Position numbers and translations under genes: made by a program. This document shows positions 1 to 60,389 of a DNA stretch of 64,000 nucleotides, one piece after another. Position 1 is the stretch's first letter, and the number at the start of each line of letters is the position of its first letter. Origin of the DNA: a virus; IMG/VR virus record IMGVR_UViG_3300007535_000003, positions 1-64,000 of that record; one strand, given 5' to 3'. Below the pieces are notes generated by a model that saw nothing but the letters and a program-made list of their open reading frames with translations, ran no database searches and was not told the DNA's origin.

Positions 1-3000
1 GAATTAACAAGAAGCTTAATAGTAGAATCATAGGTAGTACCATAAAACTTACCGTAGTAAGCACTATCAGTACTGTAAATATAAAAATTTCTACCATCTT
101 TAGTGGATAAAAGCTCCCTATTAACATTAATATAATAAGTAGCATCTATACTATATAAGGACTGGAATAAGCCTAAGCGCTCATTATAAACTAAAGTTTT
201 AGTATCTGCCCCATTTGAAAGTGTAAATAGAATCTCATTACGCTTTTCATCTTTACCAGATACACAGCTAGTAAAATCGTATTGATTCATAAAAGGCTGC
301 ATAGCTTTTTCCTTAGTCAAGCTAGTTACTTTAAGCTTACCGTATTGATCCCTATACATATGCACTATAGTATTAGTGTATGAATCAAACCAGTATAAAC
401 CTGTAGATGTATTCACTATAGAATATTTATTAGTGCAGCCATAGTCTGTAGTAATATAATCAAATCTAGATAATAAAGTACCAGTACCTAAAACAAGTTG
501 TTGGCCTGAATTATCTTGTACTAAAGAACGTTCATTAACTGAAACTACGCCTATAGCCCTCTCTTGTAGATAGTATAGCTTATCCTCAAACTTGTATAAA
601 CTCACTATATCCCCATATGAAGAGTCTACATCAATATAATCATTAGCTGGATATAATAGCCAGCTATCGTATTTTTCCCCATTAATCTTATTACTAGATG
701 CTACTATCCTATTTTTGAATATATTAGTAGAATCGCTTTGTTGCTCCTCAGTGATTACAGCTTCCTTTTTAATATCATTATCTTTAGAATAAACCGTGTT
801 GTATACATACAGCGGCTCTAAGTTCTGATCAGAATCCTCATCTTCATTGAGGTATTTAATATTTGAAGTTATATCACTGAATTTAGTAGCATAGTCTCCT
901 TGTCTTAGTTCCATGTTTATACTAGATTCTAATGGGACTATGTCTACCTCTGCAAATGATCTATCATTCCTACTTTCTACTTCAGGTATAAAGCTTTCGT
1001 ATGTTATAGGTTGTAAATCAGCAGCATTTATAAATATATCCCCGTTATAAGGAGCTGTACTACCTGTACCTGTCTGTACACCAGTTATAGCTATATATTT
1101 GTTATTATTCCTTACAGAGTTAGTATTACCCCCATACATAGTACTGTAATTATAACGCTTGTAGTTAGCGATATATGGAGATTTATAATCTACACTCCCC
1201 CCATAATTGAAAGGTGCGTAACCTGTACCTCCTTGTTTAGTAATATGCTCTGAGTACAGAGGCCTTAATAACATCGAACTCACTGTACGTGCAATTTTAT
1301 CATACTTAACATTAGGAGACATCATATAAGACCAATAATCATATTTACCTATAGTATGTTTATCAGCTGTAACATTTGTATTCCAGTCAGAACCTGAGAA
1401 ATAAGGTTCCCCTACACTACGTATAATCTTAGAATCATCTATAGAAGCTACTGATATATCTTCTGTAATACCATTGTACCACTTATACATAGAAGAAATA
1501 ACAAGACCATCATCTAATATATGTGTACCCCTATTATCAGATAGTATACTGTTTAAAAACCCTATACATTCTATATAATCACCATCTAGACTGAATCCAC
1601 CCTCTTTGTAAAAAACTGTTTCAGGAGAAATAAACTGAAGTAGGTAATAATTAATGTAGCTATCTGTATAGCTAGCATCTAGATCTCTAGAATTAGACCT
1701 AGCTGGAAATGCTTGATACCCAGTATCATCCCCCTCCCTAGCTTCGTCCCCCCTATTATTGGGGAATGTAGGTTTAACTATACCTTGACTAAGTACACTC
1801 TTATCTGAAGTAGTTCGTTCAGTCCTAAGTATTTGATAAGCCGTTGCACCGGTAGGTAACGATGTTACTTCAAACACAGGGCTTAGTATATTACCAAAAG
1901 CACTACTACCATTTGTACTGTGTATAGGTTCCTCTATTATATGAGGCATCCTTAAATCACATATCCACTGGGGAGATGTTTCATGCCCTTCATTATTCAA
2001 GAACTTTATAGAGAAACGGTATATCTCATCCCTTTGATAGGATTGGAAATTAGCTGTATAATATGGACTAGCGTAGTTTTTAAAGCCGTACTTAGCTACT
2101 CTAGTAGATACAGAGGCTTTCTTGCTATCACCTGAATCCTCTAATACTATCTCTTTAGTCTCAAACGATATATTTATATTAGGACCTGAAGCACCCAAAG
2201 TATCACCATCTTTTTGATACTTATAATGATCATAATCGTTCATGGGATTATCATAGCCAGCATCGCCAAGAGACCCATCATAAGTACCATAATATGGTAT
2301 GTAGTTAAATGAATTGATTGCATCTAAATCAGTATCTGTAGGCCATGAAGGGCTAGTACCATCTATAGTAGCTTCTACAGTGGTATTACTATTGTATATT
2401 GTAGCTGATTGATCTGAAGTAAACCTATAAGCCCTAGAGTCATAACCACTTAAATCTATACCTTCAGTACTAGTAGTCTCTACATCAGCTAAAAATAGCC
2501 TATTATCTTTACTCTCTAATAACCTAGCTTTGCTTATTATGCTGGAAGCACTAGTAGTAGTACTAGATTCTACTAGTAATTCCTCTAAAGTTATAGTACC
2601 TTCGTAGCTAGAACCTGTATCTGTAAACTTGTAACTAGTAGTCCCTGAAGACATACTTACCTGACTAATCCTGTTTATTAAGGGAGTACCAGTAATAGAA
2701 TCGTAGTGTACAGAGTAAGGTATAATTTTATCATATAATTTAACTATAGAATCAGTAACTGTAACTTCCATAATGAATGCCTTACCACAGTTTTCATCTA
2801 CGTCTGAGCCTGTATATGTCCTAGTATTAGATGCAAATTCATTCGATTTAGATATGTGATATAGTCCAGTTAAGTTAGATATAGGAGATTGACTACCGCT
2901 ATTTGATACAAATCTATAAGCGTATTGAACAGTACCCGCTAATAAAGACCCATTACCTATAGAAGACAATTCTATACTAGAGTCCGTAAAAGGAAATGAA

Positions 3001-3581
3001 GGTGAAGAAGATAGACTACTTGGTGATACATAGTATCCTGAATCATCTTTAACACCTTCAGGAGCATCTAATACATTAAAACGCCTTATACCAGAAGTAC
3101 CGTCAAGCCAATATAGGTTTTCAACATTATCAGTTTCAGCCCTCAGTATAGCAGATATATTAGTACTGGTATCCCAGCCAAAACCCTCATAACCAGAATA
3201 GCTATATATAGCGTCATAATCACTATACAGCTCTTTATGAGAACTTACAGTGCTACCATCAAATACTACTTCATATATTGAAGAGTGGTCAGAACCATCT
3301 GCAACTAGAAATAGTATTACTCTGCTACCATTAACAGTATAGCCTATAAGATCGTAGTAATAGGAGCTTTCAACACTATTAAGCCTAATATCTGTATTAG
3401 CTAAAGACAGCGTATTACCTTTTATATTCTCTAGTGCGCCAGTAGAGTTATATTCATCAGCAATGAGCCTTAGATTCTCAGCATGGAGATACATATTAGG
3501 CTTCATGACGCTATAGTCCAAATCTTTATTCATGCCGCCTGAAAAAGTACTGGCGTGCTGTTGTTGTTGTTGTTTAGGCAT
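1..3581 (-). CDS. Tail stabilization/muzzle protein (crAss-like, P22 gp10-like); runs off the left edge
   Basis: ATG at 3581, read as MPKQQQQQHASTFSGGMNKDLDYSVMKPNMYLHAENLRL...GALENIKGN. This N-terminus is typical of crAss-like muzzle proteins, and the gene follows the ring protein. Absent from the ORF track because it is truncated. Confidence 0.75.
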   Translation of the reverse strand, partial: MPKQQQQQHASTFSGGMNKDLDYSVMKPNMYLHAENLRLIADEYNSTGALENIKGNTLSLANTDIRLNSVESSYYYDLIGYTVNGSRVILFLVADGSDHSSIYEVVFDGSTVSSHKELYSDYDAIYSYSGYEGFGWDTSTNISAILRAETDNVENLYWLDGTSGIRRFNVLDAPEGVKDDSGYYVSPSSLSSSPSFPFTDSSIELSSIGNGSLLAGTVQYAYRFVSNSGSQSPISNLTGLYHISKSNEFASNTRTYTGSDVDENCGKAFIMEVTVTDSIVKLYDKIIPYSVHYDSITGTPLINRISQVSMSSGTTSYKFTDTGSSYEGTITLEELLVESSTTTSASSIISKARLLESKDNRLFLADVETTSTEGIDLSGYDSRAYRFTSDQSATIYNSNTTVEATIDGTSPSWPTDTDLDAINSFNYIPYYGTYDGSLGDAGYDNPMNDYDHYKYQKDGDTLGASGPNINISFETKEIVLEDSGDSKKASVSTRVAKYGFKNYASPYYTANFQSYQRDEIYRFSIKFLNNEGHETSPQWICDLRMPHIIEEPIHSTNGSSAFGNILSPVFEVTSLPTGATAYQILRTERTTSDKSVLSQGIVKPTFPNNRGDEAREGDDTGYQAFPARSNSRDLDASYTDSYINYYLLQFISPETVFYKEGGFSLDGDYIECIGFLNSILSDNRGTHILDDGLVISSMYKWYNGITEDISVASIDDSKIIRSVGEPYFSGSDWNTNVTADKHTIGKYDYWSYMMSPNVKYDKIARTVSSMLLRPLYSEHITKQGGTGYAPFNYGGSVDYKSPYIANYKRYNYSTMYGGNTNSVRNNNKYIAITGVQTGTGSTAPYNGDIFINAADLQPITYESFIPEVESRNDRSFAEVDIVPLESSINMELRQGDYATKFSDITSNIKYLNEDEDSDQNLEPLYVYNTVYSKDNDIKKEAVITEEQQSDSTNIFKNRIVASSNKINGEKYDSWLLYPANDYIDVDSSYGDIVSLYKFEDKLYYLQERAIGVVSVNERSLVQDNSGQQLVLGTGTLLSRFDYITTDYGCTNKYSIVNTSTGLYWFDSYTNTIVHMYRDQYGKLKVTSLTKEKAMQPFMNQYDFTSCVSGKDEKRNEILFTLSNGADTKTLVYNERLGLFQSLYSIDATYYINVNRELLSTKDGRNFYIYSTDSAYYGKFYGTTYDSTIKLLVN

Positions 3582-3583
3582 AA

Positions 3584-4519
3584 TTAGCTAAAATTCCTCA
3601 GTTGTTGTTGTTGATTAAGATTCTGCATAAACTTCTCCCCTTCATTTATCTTAGGGATAAGTCTTATCCAACTGTTCTTAAGTGACTCTAGTTCATCTAT
3701 AGATTTAGGACCTACAGATTTACCATACGCCTGTTTGACATAGAAGCGCCATTTACTGGCAGCGTGTACATATATTTCTTTATCCTTTAGCTCACCTCGT
3801 ATCCATTGCAAATAGAATATCTTAGTAGCTATATACCAAAAGATAGCATCTATAAAGCTTTGATTATCTGATACCATTGGATAACCATAGTAGTCTAAGG
3901 GGATGGCTAGGTATGAAATCATCAAGTACCCAGTCTTAACATTAGTTTTAATATACCCTGGTACTATCTTATACTCCAACAAATCTGTATTAACTGTACC
4001 CCCATCACTAGACATTTGTATTACCCCCTCATCTAGTAAAGTCCTTAATATAGATTCAGTTTCTTCGTCAGTATTAAGCTTTGTCACTGCTTCTTCATAG
4101 GTTAAATCAAATAACCTCATAGTAAGATCTATAAGGTCTGATGTGGCTACATTACTTAAGTCTACAGCCCCATCTAAATGCTCATGGTCTATATCTTTAG
4201 TTAGACCATAATTACCTGAGAAACTGCCCGAAGCATACTTCATTGGATAGAAGTTATCAGAACTCTCTTCTAGAGCATATGCAACTTGAATTACCTGTTT
4301 ACAGTCATACGGTAAAGGAGCTTGGTAATCTGTTATTTTCTTTAGTGGTACACCAGCTTTACCTGTAACCTTTTGTACATAAGAATTTGGGGCTTCTATC
4401 TTCTCTAAAGCTTCTGCAGCCCATTCAACCATATCGTTTATAGGTACATCAGATTCACCTAAGCCTAAATCTGCATATACTTTAGATATGATACTCTTCA
4501 ATGATATTAAATTATTCAT
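3584..4519 (-). CDS. Tail ring/tubular protein (P22 gp4-like)
   Basis: SIISKVYADL...EWAAEALEKI and ISYLAIPLD..GYPMV..FIDAIFWYI motifs; position next to the muzzle gene. Confidence 0.65.
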   Translation of the reverse strand: MNNLISLKSIISKVYADLGLGESDVPINDMVEWAAEALEKIEAPNSYVQKVTGKAGVPLKKITDYQAPLPYDCKQVIQVAYALEESSDNFYPMKYASGSFSGNYGLTKDIDHEHLDGAVDLSNVATSDLIDLTMRLFDLTYEEAVTKLNTDEETESILRTLLDEGVIQMSSDGGTVNTDLLEYKIVPGYIKTNVKTGYLMISYLAIPLDYYGYPMVSDNQSFIDAIFWYIATKIFYLQWIRGELKDKEIYVHAASKWRFYVKQAYGKSVGPKSIDELESLKNSWIRLIPKINEGEKFMQNLNQQQQLRNFS

Positions 4520-4524
4520 ATAAA

Positions 4525-5013
4525 TTAGTTTTCAAAGTAGTCAGCCAGTTTATTTTTTATAATGTGAGCTAACCTACGCTTATTACCCCTTGAGGGTATA
4601 AATCTGTAAAAACTCTTATGTTTAACTACAGCCTTCCTTTTATCCCATTTGAACATATACTTATATCCATCACTATGTTCGTTAAAATGGTATATAGTTT
4701 TGCCATACTTCTTTGTTAAATTAAAATCTACCGATAGCCTTTTCTTCCTACCCATGCTAGACTTTAGTTTAATTATTCTAAGGCTACCTAACCTATAAGG
4801 CATCTTAAAAGTACCAGCTTCATATAGCATATAGTCTACCATACTAAGTACAAAGTCCTTGTTTATATCTGCATATTCTTCTTTAGATATAGCATAGGGG
4901 GAATTATTAAACTTATCAGCTATATAATCTTCATACATGTTAATAAAAGTGTACGAATCTTTAACTATATTTTCGCCTCTTTTACTCATTACTAACCGGC
5001 TGTTTTTCAACAT
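4525..5013 (-). CDS. IHF/HU-like DNA-binding protein of crAss-like phages
   Basis: Basic protein with FKMPYRLGSLRIIK and HFNEHSDGYKYMFKW; conserved slot in the tail module. Confidence 0.65.
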   Translation of the reverse strand: MLKNSRLVMSKRGENIVKDSYTFINMYEDYIADKFNNSPYAISKEEYADINKDFVLSMVDYMLYEAGTFKMPYRLGSLRIIKLKSSMGRKKRLSVDFNLTKKYGKTIYHFNEHSDGYKYMFKWDKRKAVVKHKSFYRFIPSRGNKRRLAHIIKNKLADYFEN

Positions 5014-6875: not shown

Positions 6876-7068
6876 GACTATTGTTTTTATTGTTATTATT
6901 CTTACCAAACTTTCTACCAGCTTCTTCTGTTATTATCGCACTCATACCAGAAGGTATGCCTACAGACCAATAAGTACTATCCTCAGTATAAAAACTTAAA
7001 ACTGCTGATAAAAGTATGACAATGTATCCAGCTATCCTAGGAGCTGTTAAAAATTGTTTACCCTTCAT
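6862..7068 (-). CDS. Holin-like small membrane protein
   Basis: Two short hydrophobic segments and a basic C-terminus; adjacent to the endolysin; likely start ATG 7068. Confidence 0.4.
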   Translation of the reverse strand: MKGKQFLTAPRIAGYIVILLSAVLSFYTEDSTYWSVGIPSGMSAIITEEAGRKFGKNNNNKNNSHENS

Positions 7069-34224: not shown

Positions 34225-34279
34225 AAGCTAAATAAGCTATTTTATTAATTTTTAGATATACCTATCCCCTATAATCGTA

Positions 34280-34500
34280 AAATTTGCCCTAAGTTTTCGC
34301 TAAACCAGTTCGTCACCTCTTGTTGGCTACACCCACCCCTATTTTTTCCATTCTATATAGACCTGTTGGGTCATAGGGTGCTTAGCTTATACTTAGGGTG
34401 TTTTTGGCACTATCGGGGACAATATACTTACTAACCCAACTTCTGACCCCCTAACTACCTCTCGGCCCTCGGGGGCGATCTACCTCTCGGTAGGTGCCTA
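34280..34500 (-). ncRNA. Putative structured ncRNA
   Basis: ORF-free, GC-richer; several nested stems, a GAGA tetraloop and a possible pseudoknot. Confidence 0.45.
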
Positions 34501-34509
34501 TTAGTTAGA

Positions 34510-40845: not shown

Positions 40846-40965
40846 GGTCCGTTCGTCTAGTGGTAGGACGCCGAGCTGTTAATACTTTATACATGCACTA
40901 GCTATGTTAGAGTATCAACCATGGTTTGCCCCACGGAAACGGAGGTTCGACTCCTCCACGGACTG
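40846..40965 (+). tRNA. tRNA-like RNA (Glu/Asp-type body) with the anticodon arm extended into a long hairpin
   Basis: Acceptor GGTCCGT/ACGGACT; D-arm GTCTAGTGGTAGGAC; T-arm GGAGG-TTCGACT-CCTCC; about 45-50 extra nt in the anticodon arm. Confidence 0.7.
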
Positions 40966-41630: not shown

Positions 41631-42074
41631 ATGTGGAAATCTAACTCAAAGCAAAGCAAAGACAAAATAAGTAAGGGCAGTTTAGTAATTATTGACATGC
41701 CCGACTTTATTGGAGAATATGTACCTTCAATAAGTAAGGTAGCGTGTAGCTACAAAGAAAAGATGCTACATTTCTCTAATGTTAGCAATGCTTTTGGTAG
41801 CTTATTTGGTGAAGAACACCATTTAATAGAAGTACCAAGAGCAGTCATACTCTATAACAAGACACATTTTCTTAAGAGTGTATTAGAGCTATCTGAAGCA
41901 TATAAAGAAGATAGCTTAGATTCTTTATTCTTTTACGGTCGTAAAATAGTACTACCAGTCCATGAGGGATACTTAATGCCGGTAAGTAAAATAAAGGATC
42001 CACACAAAAGAGGACTATGTTATAGAGAATGGGAAATGTTAAAGACTAAGGGATATAGTAACCTTATAACCTAA
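41631..42074 (+). CDS. Hypothetical protein
   Basis: ORF in operon. Confidence 0.55.
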   Translation: MWKSNSKQSKDKISKGSLVIIDMPDFIGEYVPSISKVACSYKEKMLHFSNVSNAFGSLFGEEHHLIEVPRAVILYNKTHFLKSVLELSEAYKEDSLDSLFFYGRKIVLPVHEGYLMPVSKIKDPHKRGLCYREWEMLKTKGYSNLIT

Positions 42075-42135
42075 CTTAACTAACAAACGATTTACTTACG
42101 CTGCTAGCTAGGGCTTTAGCGGACTCGGGTTCGAT

Positions 42136-42756
42136 CAAAAGGTCGAAGTTAAACTGGGTGAATTCAGGGAAACCTAAGTCACAATGATAAGGCAACCCTG
42201 AGCCAAGCCCTTAAGAGGGAAGGTGCAGAGACTACCTGAATACAGGCTAGAGCGCCCAGCACTTAAAAGTGAAGAGATAGTCCGATACTCCTGAGAAATT
42301 AGGAGAAGAAGCGAGATGTAAATTCTTGACGTTTTGATAAGGTTTCTTTTGTATATTTACCATTACGAGGTGTTATACTCTTCAATTCGTTAAGTATCAT
42401 ATCTATACGTCTACGCTTCTTGGGATGTCTGGAATTTATGTAAGATAGTACGTTTATACATTTAGGTAAATAAGTATACCTCAGCTCATAATTAGTAAAA
42501 TCACCTGATTTTTTAGTACAAATGAATCCATTATGACCTGTTTCAAGTTTAATAAATTTTTCTATTTCCACAAGTAGGTCATATTCGTTATTACTAAAAG
42601 AAATAACAGGTGATCTTTCGCAATTCTTATGTAAACGTAAAAATGTTATCGTGCCGTCAGCATCAAAGAAACCTGTAATATATTCCCAACCCATATTTTT
42701 ATTGAATATACGGACGCAGGTTTGAAATGTTACTGTTCCAGATGTTTTAACTATTG
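42136..42756 (+). mobile_element. Group I intron in the tmRNA T-loop
   Basis: P1 TTCGAT|C-AAAA-GGTCGAA with U:G at the splice site; P3 CTGGGTG/CGCCCAG; P4 TTCAGGG/CCCTGAG; GCAGAGACT and AGATAGTC (P7); P9 CTCCT/AGGAG; terminal G at 42756. Confidence 0.9.
42299..42694 (-). CDS. Single-motif LAGLIDADG homing endonuclease, antisense inside the intron
   Basis: WEYITGFFDADGTI; TPRNGKYT; lies in the intron 3' (P9) region. Confidence 0.88.
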   Translation of the reverse strand: MGWEYITGFFDADGTITFLRLHKNCERSPVISFSNNEYDLLVEIEKFIKLETGHNGFICTKKSGDFTNYELRYTYLPKCINVLSYINSRHPKKRRRIDMILNELKSITPRNGKYTKETLSKRQEFTSRFFS

Positions 42757-44863: not shown

Positions 44864-45388
44864 ATGTCAAAAAGTAAAAAAGAAAGAAACACTTCACACG
44901 ACGCAATAGAGTTAATACTCGTAAGCGTGCGTATCAACGAGCTCAGGAGCTTAAGGTTACGGTTATTTAACGACATTTATTTAATACGTTCAACCTGTCA
45001 AAACTCCAAGTTTACAAGAGCTTCTAGTACTATCAACAATATGAGTTTACTCATAAGCGAGATAGATGCTAGAAGAAAAAGCTTAACAAGGAGAAGTAGA
45101 TCCTTGATGGTAAGAATGATTAAGCTAACCAATAAAACATTTCAAGAAAAACCATCAGAGCTAGTGCCCTTACACAATAAAGATATTGAAACTGGGTATG
45201 TAGAACTGACGGAAGTAACTGAACAAGGTGAACTTATACCCCATTTACTACTACTTGATAGTGGTAAAATAGAACCAGCTAACAATGTAAGAGCTAAACA
45301 GATCATGGCAAGAGGTCCCAGCTATACCGGGTTCACCTTCGATAAAATAAAAGCCTTGGCTATAATGTCTGAAACCTGGCCAAGGTAG
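44864..45388 (+). CDS. Hypothetical protein
   Basis: 174-aa ORF. Confidence 0.65.
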   Translation: MSKSKKERNTSHDAIELILVSVRINELRSLRLRLFNDIYLIRSTCQNSKFTRASSTINNMSLLISEIDARRKSLTRRSRSLMVRMIKLTNKTFQEKPSELVPLHNKDIETGYVELTEVTEQGELIPHLLLLDSGKIEPANNVRAKQIMARGPSYTGFTFDKIKALAIMSETWPR

Positions 45389-45390
45389 CA

Positions 45391-46690
45391 CATAATATTT
45401 TTTGTGGTTTGAGTCGATTTAGGTGCGAGCCTATTTCGGCTTCAATTTTTGTAGCAGTTCTTGAGAGAACCTTCACCCTACCGCCTTTGGATTCGGCAAT
45501 GTTGGGAATACCAAGGACAATGCCTACTACCTATTAGCTACTCAATATCTACAAAACTACTCTCCTTATGAAGTATCCTAGGAAGATGGGTTCCAATTAT
45601 TGATTTAAGCGCACTCTGAGGAACTGGCAGACCCGATGGATACATTAAGGTAAATAGGTCTAACGCAACCCATGGTCAAATCCGTACTCTTAAGTGTGTG
45701 GGTATTACCCTTAAGAGCTTATGCATGCTCGCACTTCCCTTTACGAAAAGGTTGAACTAAGAAGTAACTGAATACGGGGCTGTATATACTGTATACAGTG
45801 GGGCTGGAAACACCAGAAGACTACGATGATGCTACCTAGTAAATAGGCCAAGTGAACACTTAACTTTGAATTAAGTTAGTAACGGGGGGTCCAAATTCCT
45901 TAGAGTCGTTGTATAGACCTTGAGTACCGAGTACAGAGTAGATAATTTATCCCCCAGTAAAGTGGTGTAGTTCAAGCCGCAGTAGCGAAATATGAACTGT
46001 CGTCTGTGATTTCGGCTGGGGTAAGAGGAGGAGGGATGGATACGTGTGCTTCACCGTTTGTATGGTAAGAAGCTACATGTTATACGCCCTAGCCAAGATC
46101 TGAAGCATGAATCGTCAAGTTGGGGCTTAGGAATAAGTTTGATAAATAGCCTGCGATAGGTCGCAATCCCTATCAGTTTCAACCATCGAGTAATGTGGAG
46201 GATACATACATCAATGAGGCGGTAATGCCGCCCAGTATCATGGTAGTGCGCTTTATAACTGATGCAGCCATTTCCAGTTATATTTGCTTGGAGCTACTTA
46301 TGATGCGATACTCTGTAGGACAGAGGGTCTTTAAACTTAGCAGGTAACCGTAAGTGTGGAGAACAAAGTTAAGTCCCTAGAGTAGAACAGACCTCTAACA
46401 GTTCTACAAAATTCAAATAGTAAACAAGGGTTTACAACGGAGCCGTTAGGCTGTTGTATAATATATACCCAAATAAATGTCAGTGTATTTCTTGCCTAAC
46501 CACAGCAAGAGACTGACTAATAGTGACTATAAGAGTATTAAGCTAAGGAGGTTGTGAGTGGATGTGGTTCATGAGGTACCAAGTGCATTTTAAAAGCTTG
46601 GGTGGATGACTTCATTGAATCATAGCTTAATATTAAGTAAGGAAATAGGACTGGGGCTTAAGAAAGTCCCAGCTCCCCAGTCCTTTTAAA
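45391..46690 (+). ncRNA. Large structured non-coding region (one or more ncRNAs)
   Basis: 1.3 kb without a 60-aa ORF in any frame; GC-richer; many hairpins, GNRA loops and long-range complementarities; ends in a terminator at 46647-46687. Confidence 0.65.
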
Positions 46691-46700
46691 CTATTAAAAA

Positions 46701-47015
46701 ATGAAGGTAAAAAAGTATAAATATCTAATACCTATAATAAGCATAAAAGCTGAAGGTACCTTAGTACATTTGATACAGCGCAATATTCTGTACAAAGCTA
46801 AAAAAGTACTAGGGATCAAAATACCAATAGAAAAGATCTTTCAAAAAGACAGGGGGATCTCAGCTTGGAAAGAGACAGCGGGTCATAAGCAGACTAAATG
46901 GAGAATAGTCTACATAAAAGATGAAGATAATAACATCAGATTAGGGCCCGTTATTCAAGACAAGAAACTTTTAAAGTTTTTAAACAAGATTACTAACCAA
47001 AATTATGCAAAATGA
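46701..47015 (+). CDS. Hypothetical basic protein
   Basis: 104-aa ORF. Confidence 0.55.
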   Translation: MKVKKYKYLIPIISIKAEGTLVHLIQRNILYKAKKVLGIKIPIEKIFQKDRGISAWKETAGHKQTKWRIVYIKDEDNNIRLGPVIQDKKLLKFLNKITNQNYAK

Positions 47016-47549: not shown

Positions 47550-47972
47550 ATGGCTAAAAGCAAAAAGAAAGTACAAGATGAAGTACAGGAACAAGAAACT
47601 GCAACTACAGTGGAAAATGAAGCTACAGAAGCTTCTGGTTCAGACAACACCCAAACTGCTAACGCTGAGGATGATACGGTCTTTGGTACGGTAGTATGGA
47701 ACGACAAAAAGAAGAAAGGATTTGGTTTTATCCAGATGGATGGTGAAAAGCAAGAAGAAGGTAATGATATCTTTATGCACCATTCCCAAATTATGGCTTA
47801 CAAAGATGGTAAGGTACCAAATCTTGAAGCTGGTGATAGGGTATCCTTTATACTTGTAGATCCCCCGGAGAGCAATAGCAAACAAAAACCTATTGCTTCT
47901 GAAGTAGTTCTCGAGGAAAAAGCTCCCAAAGAGGATAAACCCAAAGAGGAAAGCAAATCTGAAAATAAGTAG
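47550..47972 (+). CDS. Cold-shock domain (CspA-like) protein with acidic extensions
   Basis: GTVVWNDKKKKGFGFI (RNP1), DIFMHHSQI (RNP2), LEAGDRVSF. Confidence 0.85.
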   Translation: MAKSKKKVQDEVQEQETATTVENEATEASGSDNTQTANAEDDTVFGTVVWNDKKKKGFGFIQMDGEKQEEGNDIFMHHSQIMAYKDGKVPNLEAGDRVSFILVDPPESNSKQKPIASEVVLEEKAPKEDKPKEESKSENK

Positions 47973-59808: not shown

Positions 59809-59906
59809 ATTAGCATATAATATCCCTCTTCGGAGGGTACATATATATACCCAGGGCTTTGTTTTACAACAAGGCCCTATTTTTTGCTAGCTCAAGTATA
59901 ATAACA

Positions 59907-60297
59907 AGCTCGATAGCGGAACCAGAAGACGCACTGATTAGCCTTGACCCCTAAGGCTTGAAATTGGGGGGAGGCCTTGCTATCCTAAGAAACTGAATCT
60001 TTTTATATCAATGACAAGATATAAAGATAGCAACGCTCGTGGGCGTAGAATAACGAGCAAAGGTACAACTGTGCACTAAGTATTATATACCTGCAAAGAA
60101 TATTAAATACGTATAGTTGATTACCGGTCAGGACGCACTAAATGGTAGTAATAGAATCCATTCAAAGAATCTATTGACCCGATAAATACTAAGTTATAGT
60201 GCAATATCCAGTAATAGACACGTTGAATTGAAGTTCGACTTAATACTACTAACAAGTAAAGTAAGTAAGTGTTGCAGGTTCAAGCCCTGCTCGAGCT
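59907..60297 (+). ncRNA. tRNA-framed ~390-nt structured RNA
   Basis: Acceptor AGCTCGA/TCGAGCT; D-arm GCG...CGC; T-arm GCAGG-TTCAAGC-CCTGC; ~320-nt structured insert at the anticodon position. Confidence 0.65.
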
Positions 60298-60305
60298 TGT
60301 TACTA

Positions 60306-60375
60306 GCCGGGTAGCTCAACGGTAGAGCCTAGGATTTTACCCTAGAGAAGCGAGGTTCGAGTCCTTGCCCCGGCA
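60306..60375 (+). tRNA. Atypical tRNA, anticodon TTT (Lys-like)
   Basis: GCCGGG/CCCGGC, GCTCAACGGTAGAGC, CTAGG-ATTTTAC-CCTAG, GCGAGG-TTCGAGT-CCTTGC. Confidence 0.65.
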
Positions 60376-60389
60376 CTAAATTAATAAGC

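Follow-up and report, generated by a model that had tools for sequence, protein, structure and literature searches.

GOLLD and ROOL are large 'ornate' RNAs of phages and prophages that are often found near transfer RNA (tRNA) genes and form RNA-only cages, seen as nanocages by cryo-electron microscopy, with no known protein partner or function (PMC12286853). In the crAss-like Cellulophaga phage phi14:2, long intergenic regions at the g004-g005 and g005-g006 junctions are more strongly transcribed than most genes and are still present late, giving long noncoding RNAs (ncRNAs) whose 'functions remain to be determined' (Drobysheva et al., bioRxiv 10.1101/2020.03.07.982082). Here we describe a candidate for another such RNA in a window of 64,000 nucleotides (nt), the first 64 kb of a 97,237-base IMG/VR virus record (IMGVR_UViG_3300007535_000003). 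Positions ~45394-46690 of the window probably encode, on the plus strand, a large (about 1.1-1.3 kb) structured ncRNA, a diverged member of an uncatalogued family that environmental crAss-like phages would keep between the same two small early/middle genes. To our knowledge, large structured ncRNAs are uncommon, and nearly every known class (GOLLD, ROOL, OLE) still lacks a function. Crassvirales are among the most abundant known phages, and in the only member with a transcriptome, long ncRNAs rank with the most abundant transcripts.

The window derives from a crAss-like phage of soil metagenomes: its capsid protein matches the Pfam family Crass_capsid with E = 9e-190, and a DnaB-like helicase and a DNA polymerase of family A are encoded as well. 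Up to ~35 kb the genes point leftward, beyond it rightward, and the stretch of interest is a gap without open reading frames (ORFs) within the rightward early/replication arm. The gap proper spans 45389-46700 (1312 nt) between two plus-strand genes, at 44864-45388 and 46701-47015, which encode proteins of 174 and 104 amino acids (aa). The initial annotation had called this stretch ORF-free and richer in G+C (GC) than the genome around it, and both descriptions hold. The longest open frame in the gap is 65 codons, no frame exceeds 140 codons under any single stop reassignment, and stop codons of all three kinds occur in all six frames; the longest ORFs listed for the stretch have 42-50 codons and non-ATG starts. 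GC is 0.416 in the gap and 0.348 in the genome, the rise extends over ~45400-46450, and the highest values among all 1.0-1.3-kb windows of the genome fall here (0.416-0.433). No gap in the whole 97-kb genome is longer. Inside the stretch A is about equal to T, whereas the coding flanks are A-rich. From its composition, the lack of an ORF and the lack of an Rfam match, we place the body of the candidate RNA, the GC-raised part of ~1 kb, at 45443-46433 on the plus strand.

The locus resembles the phi14:2 regions in being a long ORF-free intergenic stretch in the early rightward arm of a crAss-like phage, with GC above that of its flanks. The phi14:2 regions correspond to ~2905-4601 of record NC_021806 (L197). 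Within them, 4031-4502 matches the Rfam model of transfer-messenger RNA (tmRNA) with 46 bits (gathering threshold 47; E = 3.8e-16), which leaves only ~2905-3590 as unexplained RNA; in this latter part GC is raised (0.34-0.35, compared with 0.28), and Rfam gives nothing at E<=0.1. The candidate RNA differs from phi14:2 2905-3590 in that BLASTN with 7-nt words gives only chance-level matches between the two, and in that they share neither modules nor flanking genes. It also differs from the phi14:2 regions, whose expression has been measured, in being known here from its sequence alone. With GOLLD and ROOL the candidate RNA shares its size class (GOLLD is often >800 nt), its phage origin and a multi-domain fold. 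In GOLLD the 3' part is conserved and the 5' part variable, whereas the candidate RNA has a few conserved hairpins set in a variable body. Unlike GOLLD and ROOL, it has no Rfam match and comes from phages of soil and water that presumably infect Bacteroidota. The comparison with GOLLD and ROOL made in the initial annotation is therefore apt as to size and to a phage setting near tRNA-like genes, but does not extend to membership in either family.

A search with the DNA polymerase led to contig L102, whose polymerase is 69% identical and which is syntenic across the region: homologues of the 352-aa and 174-aa proteins are followed by a gap and then by homologues of the 104-aa, 166-aa and cold-shock-domain proteins. 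The gap of L102 (993-1892) is 900 nt long and holds no credible ORFs; its GC is 0.35-0.45 against ~0.29, and the A excess is lost there as it is in the window. Scanning metagenome contigs for a motif at the 5' boundary of the stretch, described below, gave L168 and L170, which are near-identical to L102, and L165, which is ~82% identical to L170 across the gap (4041-4940 in L170). In L102, L170 and L165 the homologue of the 174-aa protein lies directly upstream of the spacer and that of the 104-aa protein directly downstream. The flanking proteins are 30-36% identical between the window and these relatives, and the length of the spacer differs by lineage (1312 nt in the window and 900 nt in the relatives). 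L102/L170 and L165 are the sole syntenic relatives that were found.

The comparison of L170 with L165 gives the principal evidence for a structured RNA. Their spacers are 82.5% identical; for 11 flanking genes the identity is 86.4% at first, 92.7% at second and 72.9% at third codon positions, so that the spacer changes more slowly than the near-neutral third positions. RNAalifold predicts 238 pairs for the two spacers, 27 of them double-compensated. Shuffling the columns yields 9.1 (maximum 17), and seven coding controls of equal length yield 1-14. To avoid the bias of a covariation-aware predictor, we also folded L170 alone and then placed the L165 substitutions on the resulting structure. 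Here, 22 pairs are double-compensated with 5.1 expected (0/1000 permutations; 3-7 in coding controls), and 28 pairs are broken with 46.8 expected. The structure conservation index of the spacer reaches 0.86; coding controls of equal divergence lie at 0.55-0.59, and no plus-strand control exceeds 0.76. In a pair-count test we obtained 27 against 13.5 +/- 2.6 (0/500), falling to 0-3 when the partners are slid by 1-3 columns. The consensus energy, -209 kcal/mol on the plus strand and -166 kcal/mol on the minus strand, favors the plus strand. Taken at the level of the aligned sequences, these comparisons show that the 900-nt spacer of the relatives is under purifying selection and that a predicted multi-domain fold of ~36 helices is kept by compensatory changes.

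The relatives' RNA also contains an ORF, at 4311-4499 in L170 (62 codons) and 7152-7301 in L165 (49 codons), and one could suppose that the stretch encodes one or more small proteins. The first 42 codons are open and alignable in both, with 3, 5 and 9 substitutions at the three codon positions, so that second positions change as often as noncoding DNA; the stop codon and the C terminus are unconserved. The start codon falls in the 5' arm of a hairpin with the loop GUCCAAA, and at that place the window has no AUG, its own ORFs being the short non-ATG frames noted above. We regard this ORF as apparently incidental and a coding function of the stretch as extremely unlikely.

Four hairpin modules occur in the same order in the window and in the relatives, with ~12 compensated pair changes between the two types. 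The first is a 5' hairpin at 45411-45442 (plus strand) with a U run behind it. Its 7-bp stem pairs GAGUCGA with UCGGCUU, and beyond a UU/UU internal loop a second stem of 4 bp carries the loop UGCGAG. This hairpin folds with z = -4.4 and was flagged as terminator-like in a consensus scan. The corresponding 5' stem of L170 is GGUCAAU/AUUGACC; in L170 and L165 alike the stem is 7 bp long and carries GGGGG-UGCGAAU-CCCCC in the manner of a T arm. Two positions of the 5' stem are compensated between the types, and its wobble pairs are valid on the plus strand only. The second module (45884-45900) presents the loop GUCCAAA on a GGGGG/UUCCU stem; the loop is invariant in L170 and L165, where it sits on the unrelated stem AUAUGA/UCAUAU, and only 5 such hairpins exist on both strands of the whole genome. 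The third (46048-46073) has the loop UUUGUAU, an outer stem GCUU/AAGC and a variable inner stem. A pattern based on helix 22 of L170/L165 has a single match in the 97-kb genome and, across 1.28 Mb of collected loci, matches only within the RNA spacers. In each of the three sequences 7/7 of the pairs are standard, even though every inner stem is different, and 3 pairs are compensated between the window and L170. The fourth, a conserved 3' hairpin at 46434-46457, reads ACAAC-GG-AGCC-GUUA-GGCU-GUUGU. Its core, CGG-RGC(C)-GUWA-(G)GCU-G, is found nowhere else in the genome and, among the collected loci, again only in the RNA spacers; the lower stem of the hairpin covaries (ACAAC/GUUGU, AUAUC/GAUAU and UAUGUC/GUCAUA). 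Several pairs in the window's modules are G-U and would be mismatched on the opposite strand. Short of formal proof, we take the modules as good evidence for an expanded and diverged homologue of the relatives' RNA in the window. Other words common to the window and L102 (UGCAUGCUC, UAUCCUAGG and others) are not colinear, and their counts are not above those of controls.

Variation among close strains was sampled in run X4, a salt-lake metagenome whose fragments are 89-99% identical to the window and derive from mixed strains; for the most part the changes are consistent with the local hairpins. With T45896C, the G-U pair that closes the GUCCAAA hairpin becomes G-C, A46258G and C46259T are wobbles that keep the hairpin at 46254-46282 paired, and C46249T keeps or strengthens a predicted pair. 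In the hairpin at 46420-46435, a loose-end consensus has an A-U to G-C exchange. The 216 nt of 45824-46039 contain 1 difference and 526 nt of the upstream gene contain 30, a contrast on which we do not lean given the mixture of strains.

Several results weigh against reading the stretch as one large RNA of this family. The covariation comes from a single pair of sequences that are 82% alike, and no helix with a span above ~300 nt is compensated. Between the interior of the window and the relatives' RNA, BLASTN and an nhmmer profile find nothing, a global alignment reaches only z = 1.9, and shared k-mers stay within the ranges of controls; this failure of whole alignment is unsurprising given flanking proteins that are only 30-36% identical. 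Covariance models of three parts of the L170/L165 RNA (R1-R3, two sequences per model, with significance judged at the expected places) are insignificant in the window: R1 scores 6.5 bits (E = 1.8), R2 gives no match and R3 scores 13.6 bits (E = 0.74). The shared modules were picked out partly by eye. One change in run X4, T46312C, disrupts a predicted local pair. Among the sequencing runs that hold the sequence, none is an RNA run.

A further point on the same side is that the window's own sequence is no more stable than shuffled versions of it. The initial annotation had judged the stretch highly structured from local hairpins and long-range complements, some of them crossing and so implying pseudoknots. 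All of these elements are present at the positions given, but such word pairs occur at the level of chance: compared with dinucleotide shuffles, 45450-46460 contains 141 inverted 6-mers (140.9 expected), 42 7-mers (36.5) and 5 9-mers (2.5). The minimum free energy (MFE) of 45440-46439 corresponds to z = -0.14 on the plus strand and -1.27 on the minus strand, and 150-nt windows within the stretch range from z = +1.2 to -2.4. With chance-level words and an ordinary fold energy, high structure is unreadable from this one sequence. The earlier suggestion of a large ncRNA, unassigned to a family and perhaps new, gains support from the relatives' spacer and the shared modules, and not from the by-eye complementarity on which it was based. 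As a separate observation, the 150-nt window at 44975-45124, inside the gene for the 174-aa protein, has z = -6.0 on the plus strand, stronger than any within the candidate RNA.

The ordinary stability of the window's fold, its unalignable interior and its length of 1312 as opposed to 900 nt would all suit non-functional DNA, either a decayed gene or a foreign, GC-richer fragment lying between a conserved regulatory motif and a terminator. For L170 and L165 this is refuted by a spacer that evolves more slowly than third codon positions and changes by compensation. For the window we hold it to be very improbable: three internal or 3' modules are common to it and the relatives, no remnants of a frame appear under any genetic code, the stretch has no BLAST match in phage records, and gene-dense phages rarely retain 1 kb of junk at one locus across lineages whose flanking proteins have diverged so far.

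Because compensation does not extend to long spans, a single long RNA is indistinguishable by this measure from a string of domains, and the stretch could instead yield several smaller structured RNAs or processing products of 60-300 nt, which RNase P or RNase Z, for instance, would release from a read-through transcript by cleavage at a tRNA-like 5' module. The compensated helices of L170/L165 all span <=300 nt, and the sole very long-range helix (columns 93-101 with 924-932) is invariant between the two. In the window, a terminator-like hairpin with a U run already occurs at 45427-45452, and other tRNA-like genes lie in the neighborhood. The 5' module of the relatives (4059-4103 in L170 and 6892-6939 in L165) resembles a tRNA acceptor stem with a T arm and the loop UGCGAAU, and a covariance model built from it finds a genuine tRNA gene in relative G006 (C1:90833-90924; 20.5 bits, E = 0.02). 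tRNA-like minihelices at the ends of long RNAs are substrates of RNase P. The relatives' module is like such elements in having a 7-bp acceptor-like stem on a 5-bp stem with a 7-nt T-loop-like UGCGAAU. Unlike a tRNA, it has no anticodon arm, D arm or CCA, and neither ARAGORN nor the Rfam tRNA and tmRNA models call it. The window's module is simply a bulged hairpin whose loop has 6 nt and which lacks a proper T arm, the two types have no promoter or terminator pattern in common within the RNA, and the domains are contiguous, without AT-rich spacers between them. On balance we regard a string of smaller RNAs as unlikely and favor the single large ncRNA.

The proposed ends of this RNA fall on elements found in both types. 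A 5' boundary motif, AAUAUUUUUUGUGGUUU, lies at 45394-45410 on the plus strand, a few bases past the upstream stop codon. The gaps of the window and L102 both open with AAUAUUUUU(U)GUGGUUU-RR-GUC-R-AUU, and the 12-mer TTTTTGTGGTTT is identical and in the same position in the two. The motif resembles a Bacteroidota -7 promoter box, TAnnTTTG, with an exact match in L170 and L165 and one extra T in the window; if it acts as a promoter, transcription would start at the base of the 5' stem. At the other end, a strong hairpin followed by UUUU (46639-46690, plus strand; inverted repeat I2, local fold z = -3.5) ends 11 nt before the next start codon, and the equivalent place in L170 and L165 has a 15-bp closing helix and then a U-rich tract. 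The predicted fold makes it likely that 46639-46690 is an intrinsic terminator and the 3' end of the RNA. Between the conserved 3' hairpin and this terminator, the MFE helix list and the GC profile delimit a lower-GC tail (46458-46638, plus strand) with two hairpins, at 46479-46517 (loop CUAACCACA) and 46563-46624; a tail of such length has no counterpart in L170.

The boundary motif is also the exact complement of a box, AAACCACAAAA, that recurs in the early region. Ten copies of the box lie on the plus strand between 36862 and 41188, where 2.4 are expected, 0-13 nt ahead of early-gene start codons. The ORF-free stretch opens with the sole inverted copy in the genome (45400-45410, minus strand). 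The single inverted copy and its set of pairing partners are conserved in the diverged relative L165, which has seven plus-strand boxes (97-2716, 7946 and 10862; mostly TAACCACAAAA) and one inverted copy at the edge of the RNA (6880-6890, minus strand); L170 has the same arrangement. In L102 the motif is able to pair with the leader of the downstream gene too. The pattern may stem from pairing between RNAs, from a promoter or from a site for a protein. One tentative idea, to which we assign a low probability, is that the conserved 5' segment UUUUGUGGUUU, by complementing the AAACCACAAAA boxes, makes the RNA a giant 'anti-leader' riboregulator. Such an RNA would bind early mRNAs by base pairing around their translation starts and turn the early program off or on, and its large folded body would stabilize it or recruit a protein. 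The tail shows the leader-box-like CUAACCACA in a hairpin loop (46496-46504) and a second, anti-box-like UGUGGUU at 46563-46569; the candidate RNA may carry both pairing partners.

Another reading is that the stretch acts in cis, as a long 3' untranslated region of the 174-aa gene or 5' untranslated region of the 104-aa gene, controlling read-through or translation downstream. The stretch and both neighbors are on one strand, and the window's terminator-like hairpin is close to the next start codon. In L170 and L165 the pairing of CGUGUUUGC with GCAAACAUG sequesters the downstream start region, and in the single-sequence fold of L102 an alternative pairing, UUUGUGGUUU with AAACUGCAAA, does so. 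These start-sequestering helices show no covariation, both sequences being identical there, and the window has no equivalent pairing. Moreover, 0.9-1.3 kb with ~36 conserved helices far exceeds the needs of known attenuators, and we find an mRNA leader or spacer quite unlikely.

On the favored reading, the stretch would be expressed as a discrete, stable transcript that begins at or just past the boundary motif and ends at the hairpin and U run. The 5' hairpin, similar to a tRNA acceptor and T arm in the relatives, would serve as a protective or processing element. The RNA may then act in trans during the early to middle stages of infection, its fold serving as a scaffold or decoy for an RNA-binding partner from the host or the phage. 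We propose action in trans because of its precedents, the early long ncRNAs of phi14:2 and the GOLLD and ROOL RNAs. If the proposal is correct, a second, sequence-unrelated locus for a large RNA exists in environmental crAss-like phages, with a fold supported by compensatory changes, which would suggest that such RNAs recur in the early program of the order. The family would also offer a defined structural target, with 0.9-kb and 1.2-kb forms that have common modules, and the conserved complement to the early-gene leader box provides a concrete, testable regulatory idea.

Known RNA families were searched with cmscan against Rfam 15, as the initial annotation had suggested, and none matches the stretch. 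In the window, the search finds a group I intron at 42011-42305 (97 bits) and matches to the tRNA model at 40846-40965 and 60306-60375, all outside the stretch; with permissive filters, 45200-46900 gives zero matches at E<=10. GOLLD and ROOL have no match at the gathering threshold in the window, at E<=10 in the stretch or at E<=1 in the relative L102, and the OLE model is likewise unmatched at gathering or at E<=10. The group I intron model, effective elsewhere in the window, is unmatched in the stretch at E<=10. Nor is the stretch an intron of a split gene, since the 174-aa gene is complete and has full-length homologues of 163-180 aa. Group II introns usually contain a reverse transcriptase ORF; the stretch has no ORF and no Rfam group II match at E<=10. 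Its 3' hairpin does contain an AGC as well as a bulge; the latter, however, lies on the wrong strand, and in the window the loop is not GNRA. Neither Rfam nor ARAGORN calls an RNase P RNA, tmRNA or tRNA in the stretch, and no frame opens there under alternative genetic codes. A set of 50,697 phage records contains no BLASTN match to the RNA of the window or of L102 and no tblastn match to the 174-aa protein.

Further searches for the locus returned little beyond the contigs already described. Searches with the flanking proteins, singly or as alignments, against viral, metagenome and genome contigs recovered only the L102 contig; a core 21-mer pattern found nothing; the boundary motif combined with GGTGCGA found only L102 and chance matches; and the boundary motif in GTDB genomes gave chance matches only. 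One contig matching the boundary motif and GGTGCGA, L131, has an ordinary sigma-70 promoter of another phage. The 14 long crAss relatives with capsids 63-74% identical have no DNA homologue of the stretch and no homologue of the 352-aa protein. ORF-free stretches of 0.9-1.2 kb do occur ~6 kb upstream of the polymerase gene polA in some of them (L107 2985-4182, L116 2427-3555 and L106 1-906). They contain T-arm/acceptor-like ends (GGTTCGAATCCCGCC...), and we set them aside as tmRNA-like; they are probably tmRNA loci and not the candidate RNA.

Neither flanking gene, both taken from the ORF list, is assigned to a family. The two closest protein homologues are P0002 (52%) and P0003 (44%), encoded on Logan contigs of 4.4 and 2.8 kb. 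Pfam, PHROGs and a protein atlas were uninformative for the neighboring genes except for a cold-shock domain protein at 47550-47972. In the stretch, direct or tandem repeats and iterons are not above chance, and a search of the phage's own genome finds no paralogue. Two further ORF-free, GC-raised stretches lie at 34225-34509 and 59809-60389 (GC 0.42 and 0.40), the second of which includes a tRNA-Lys at 60306-60376. In several relatives (L115, L116, L117 and L119), tblastn matches to polA are split in two, 0.8-1 kb apart, and in L116 and L119 the helicase matches are split too (about 0.25 kb apart in L119), which suggests introns, inteins or inserted endonuclease genes.

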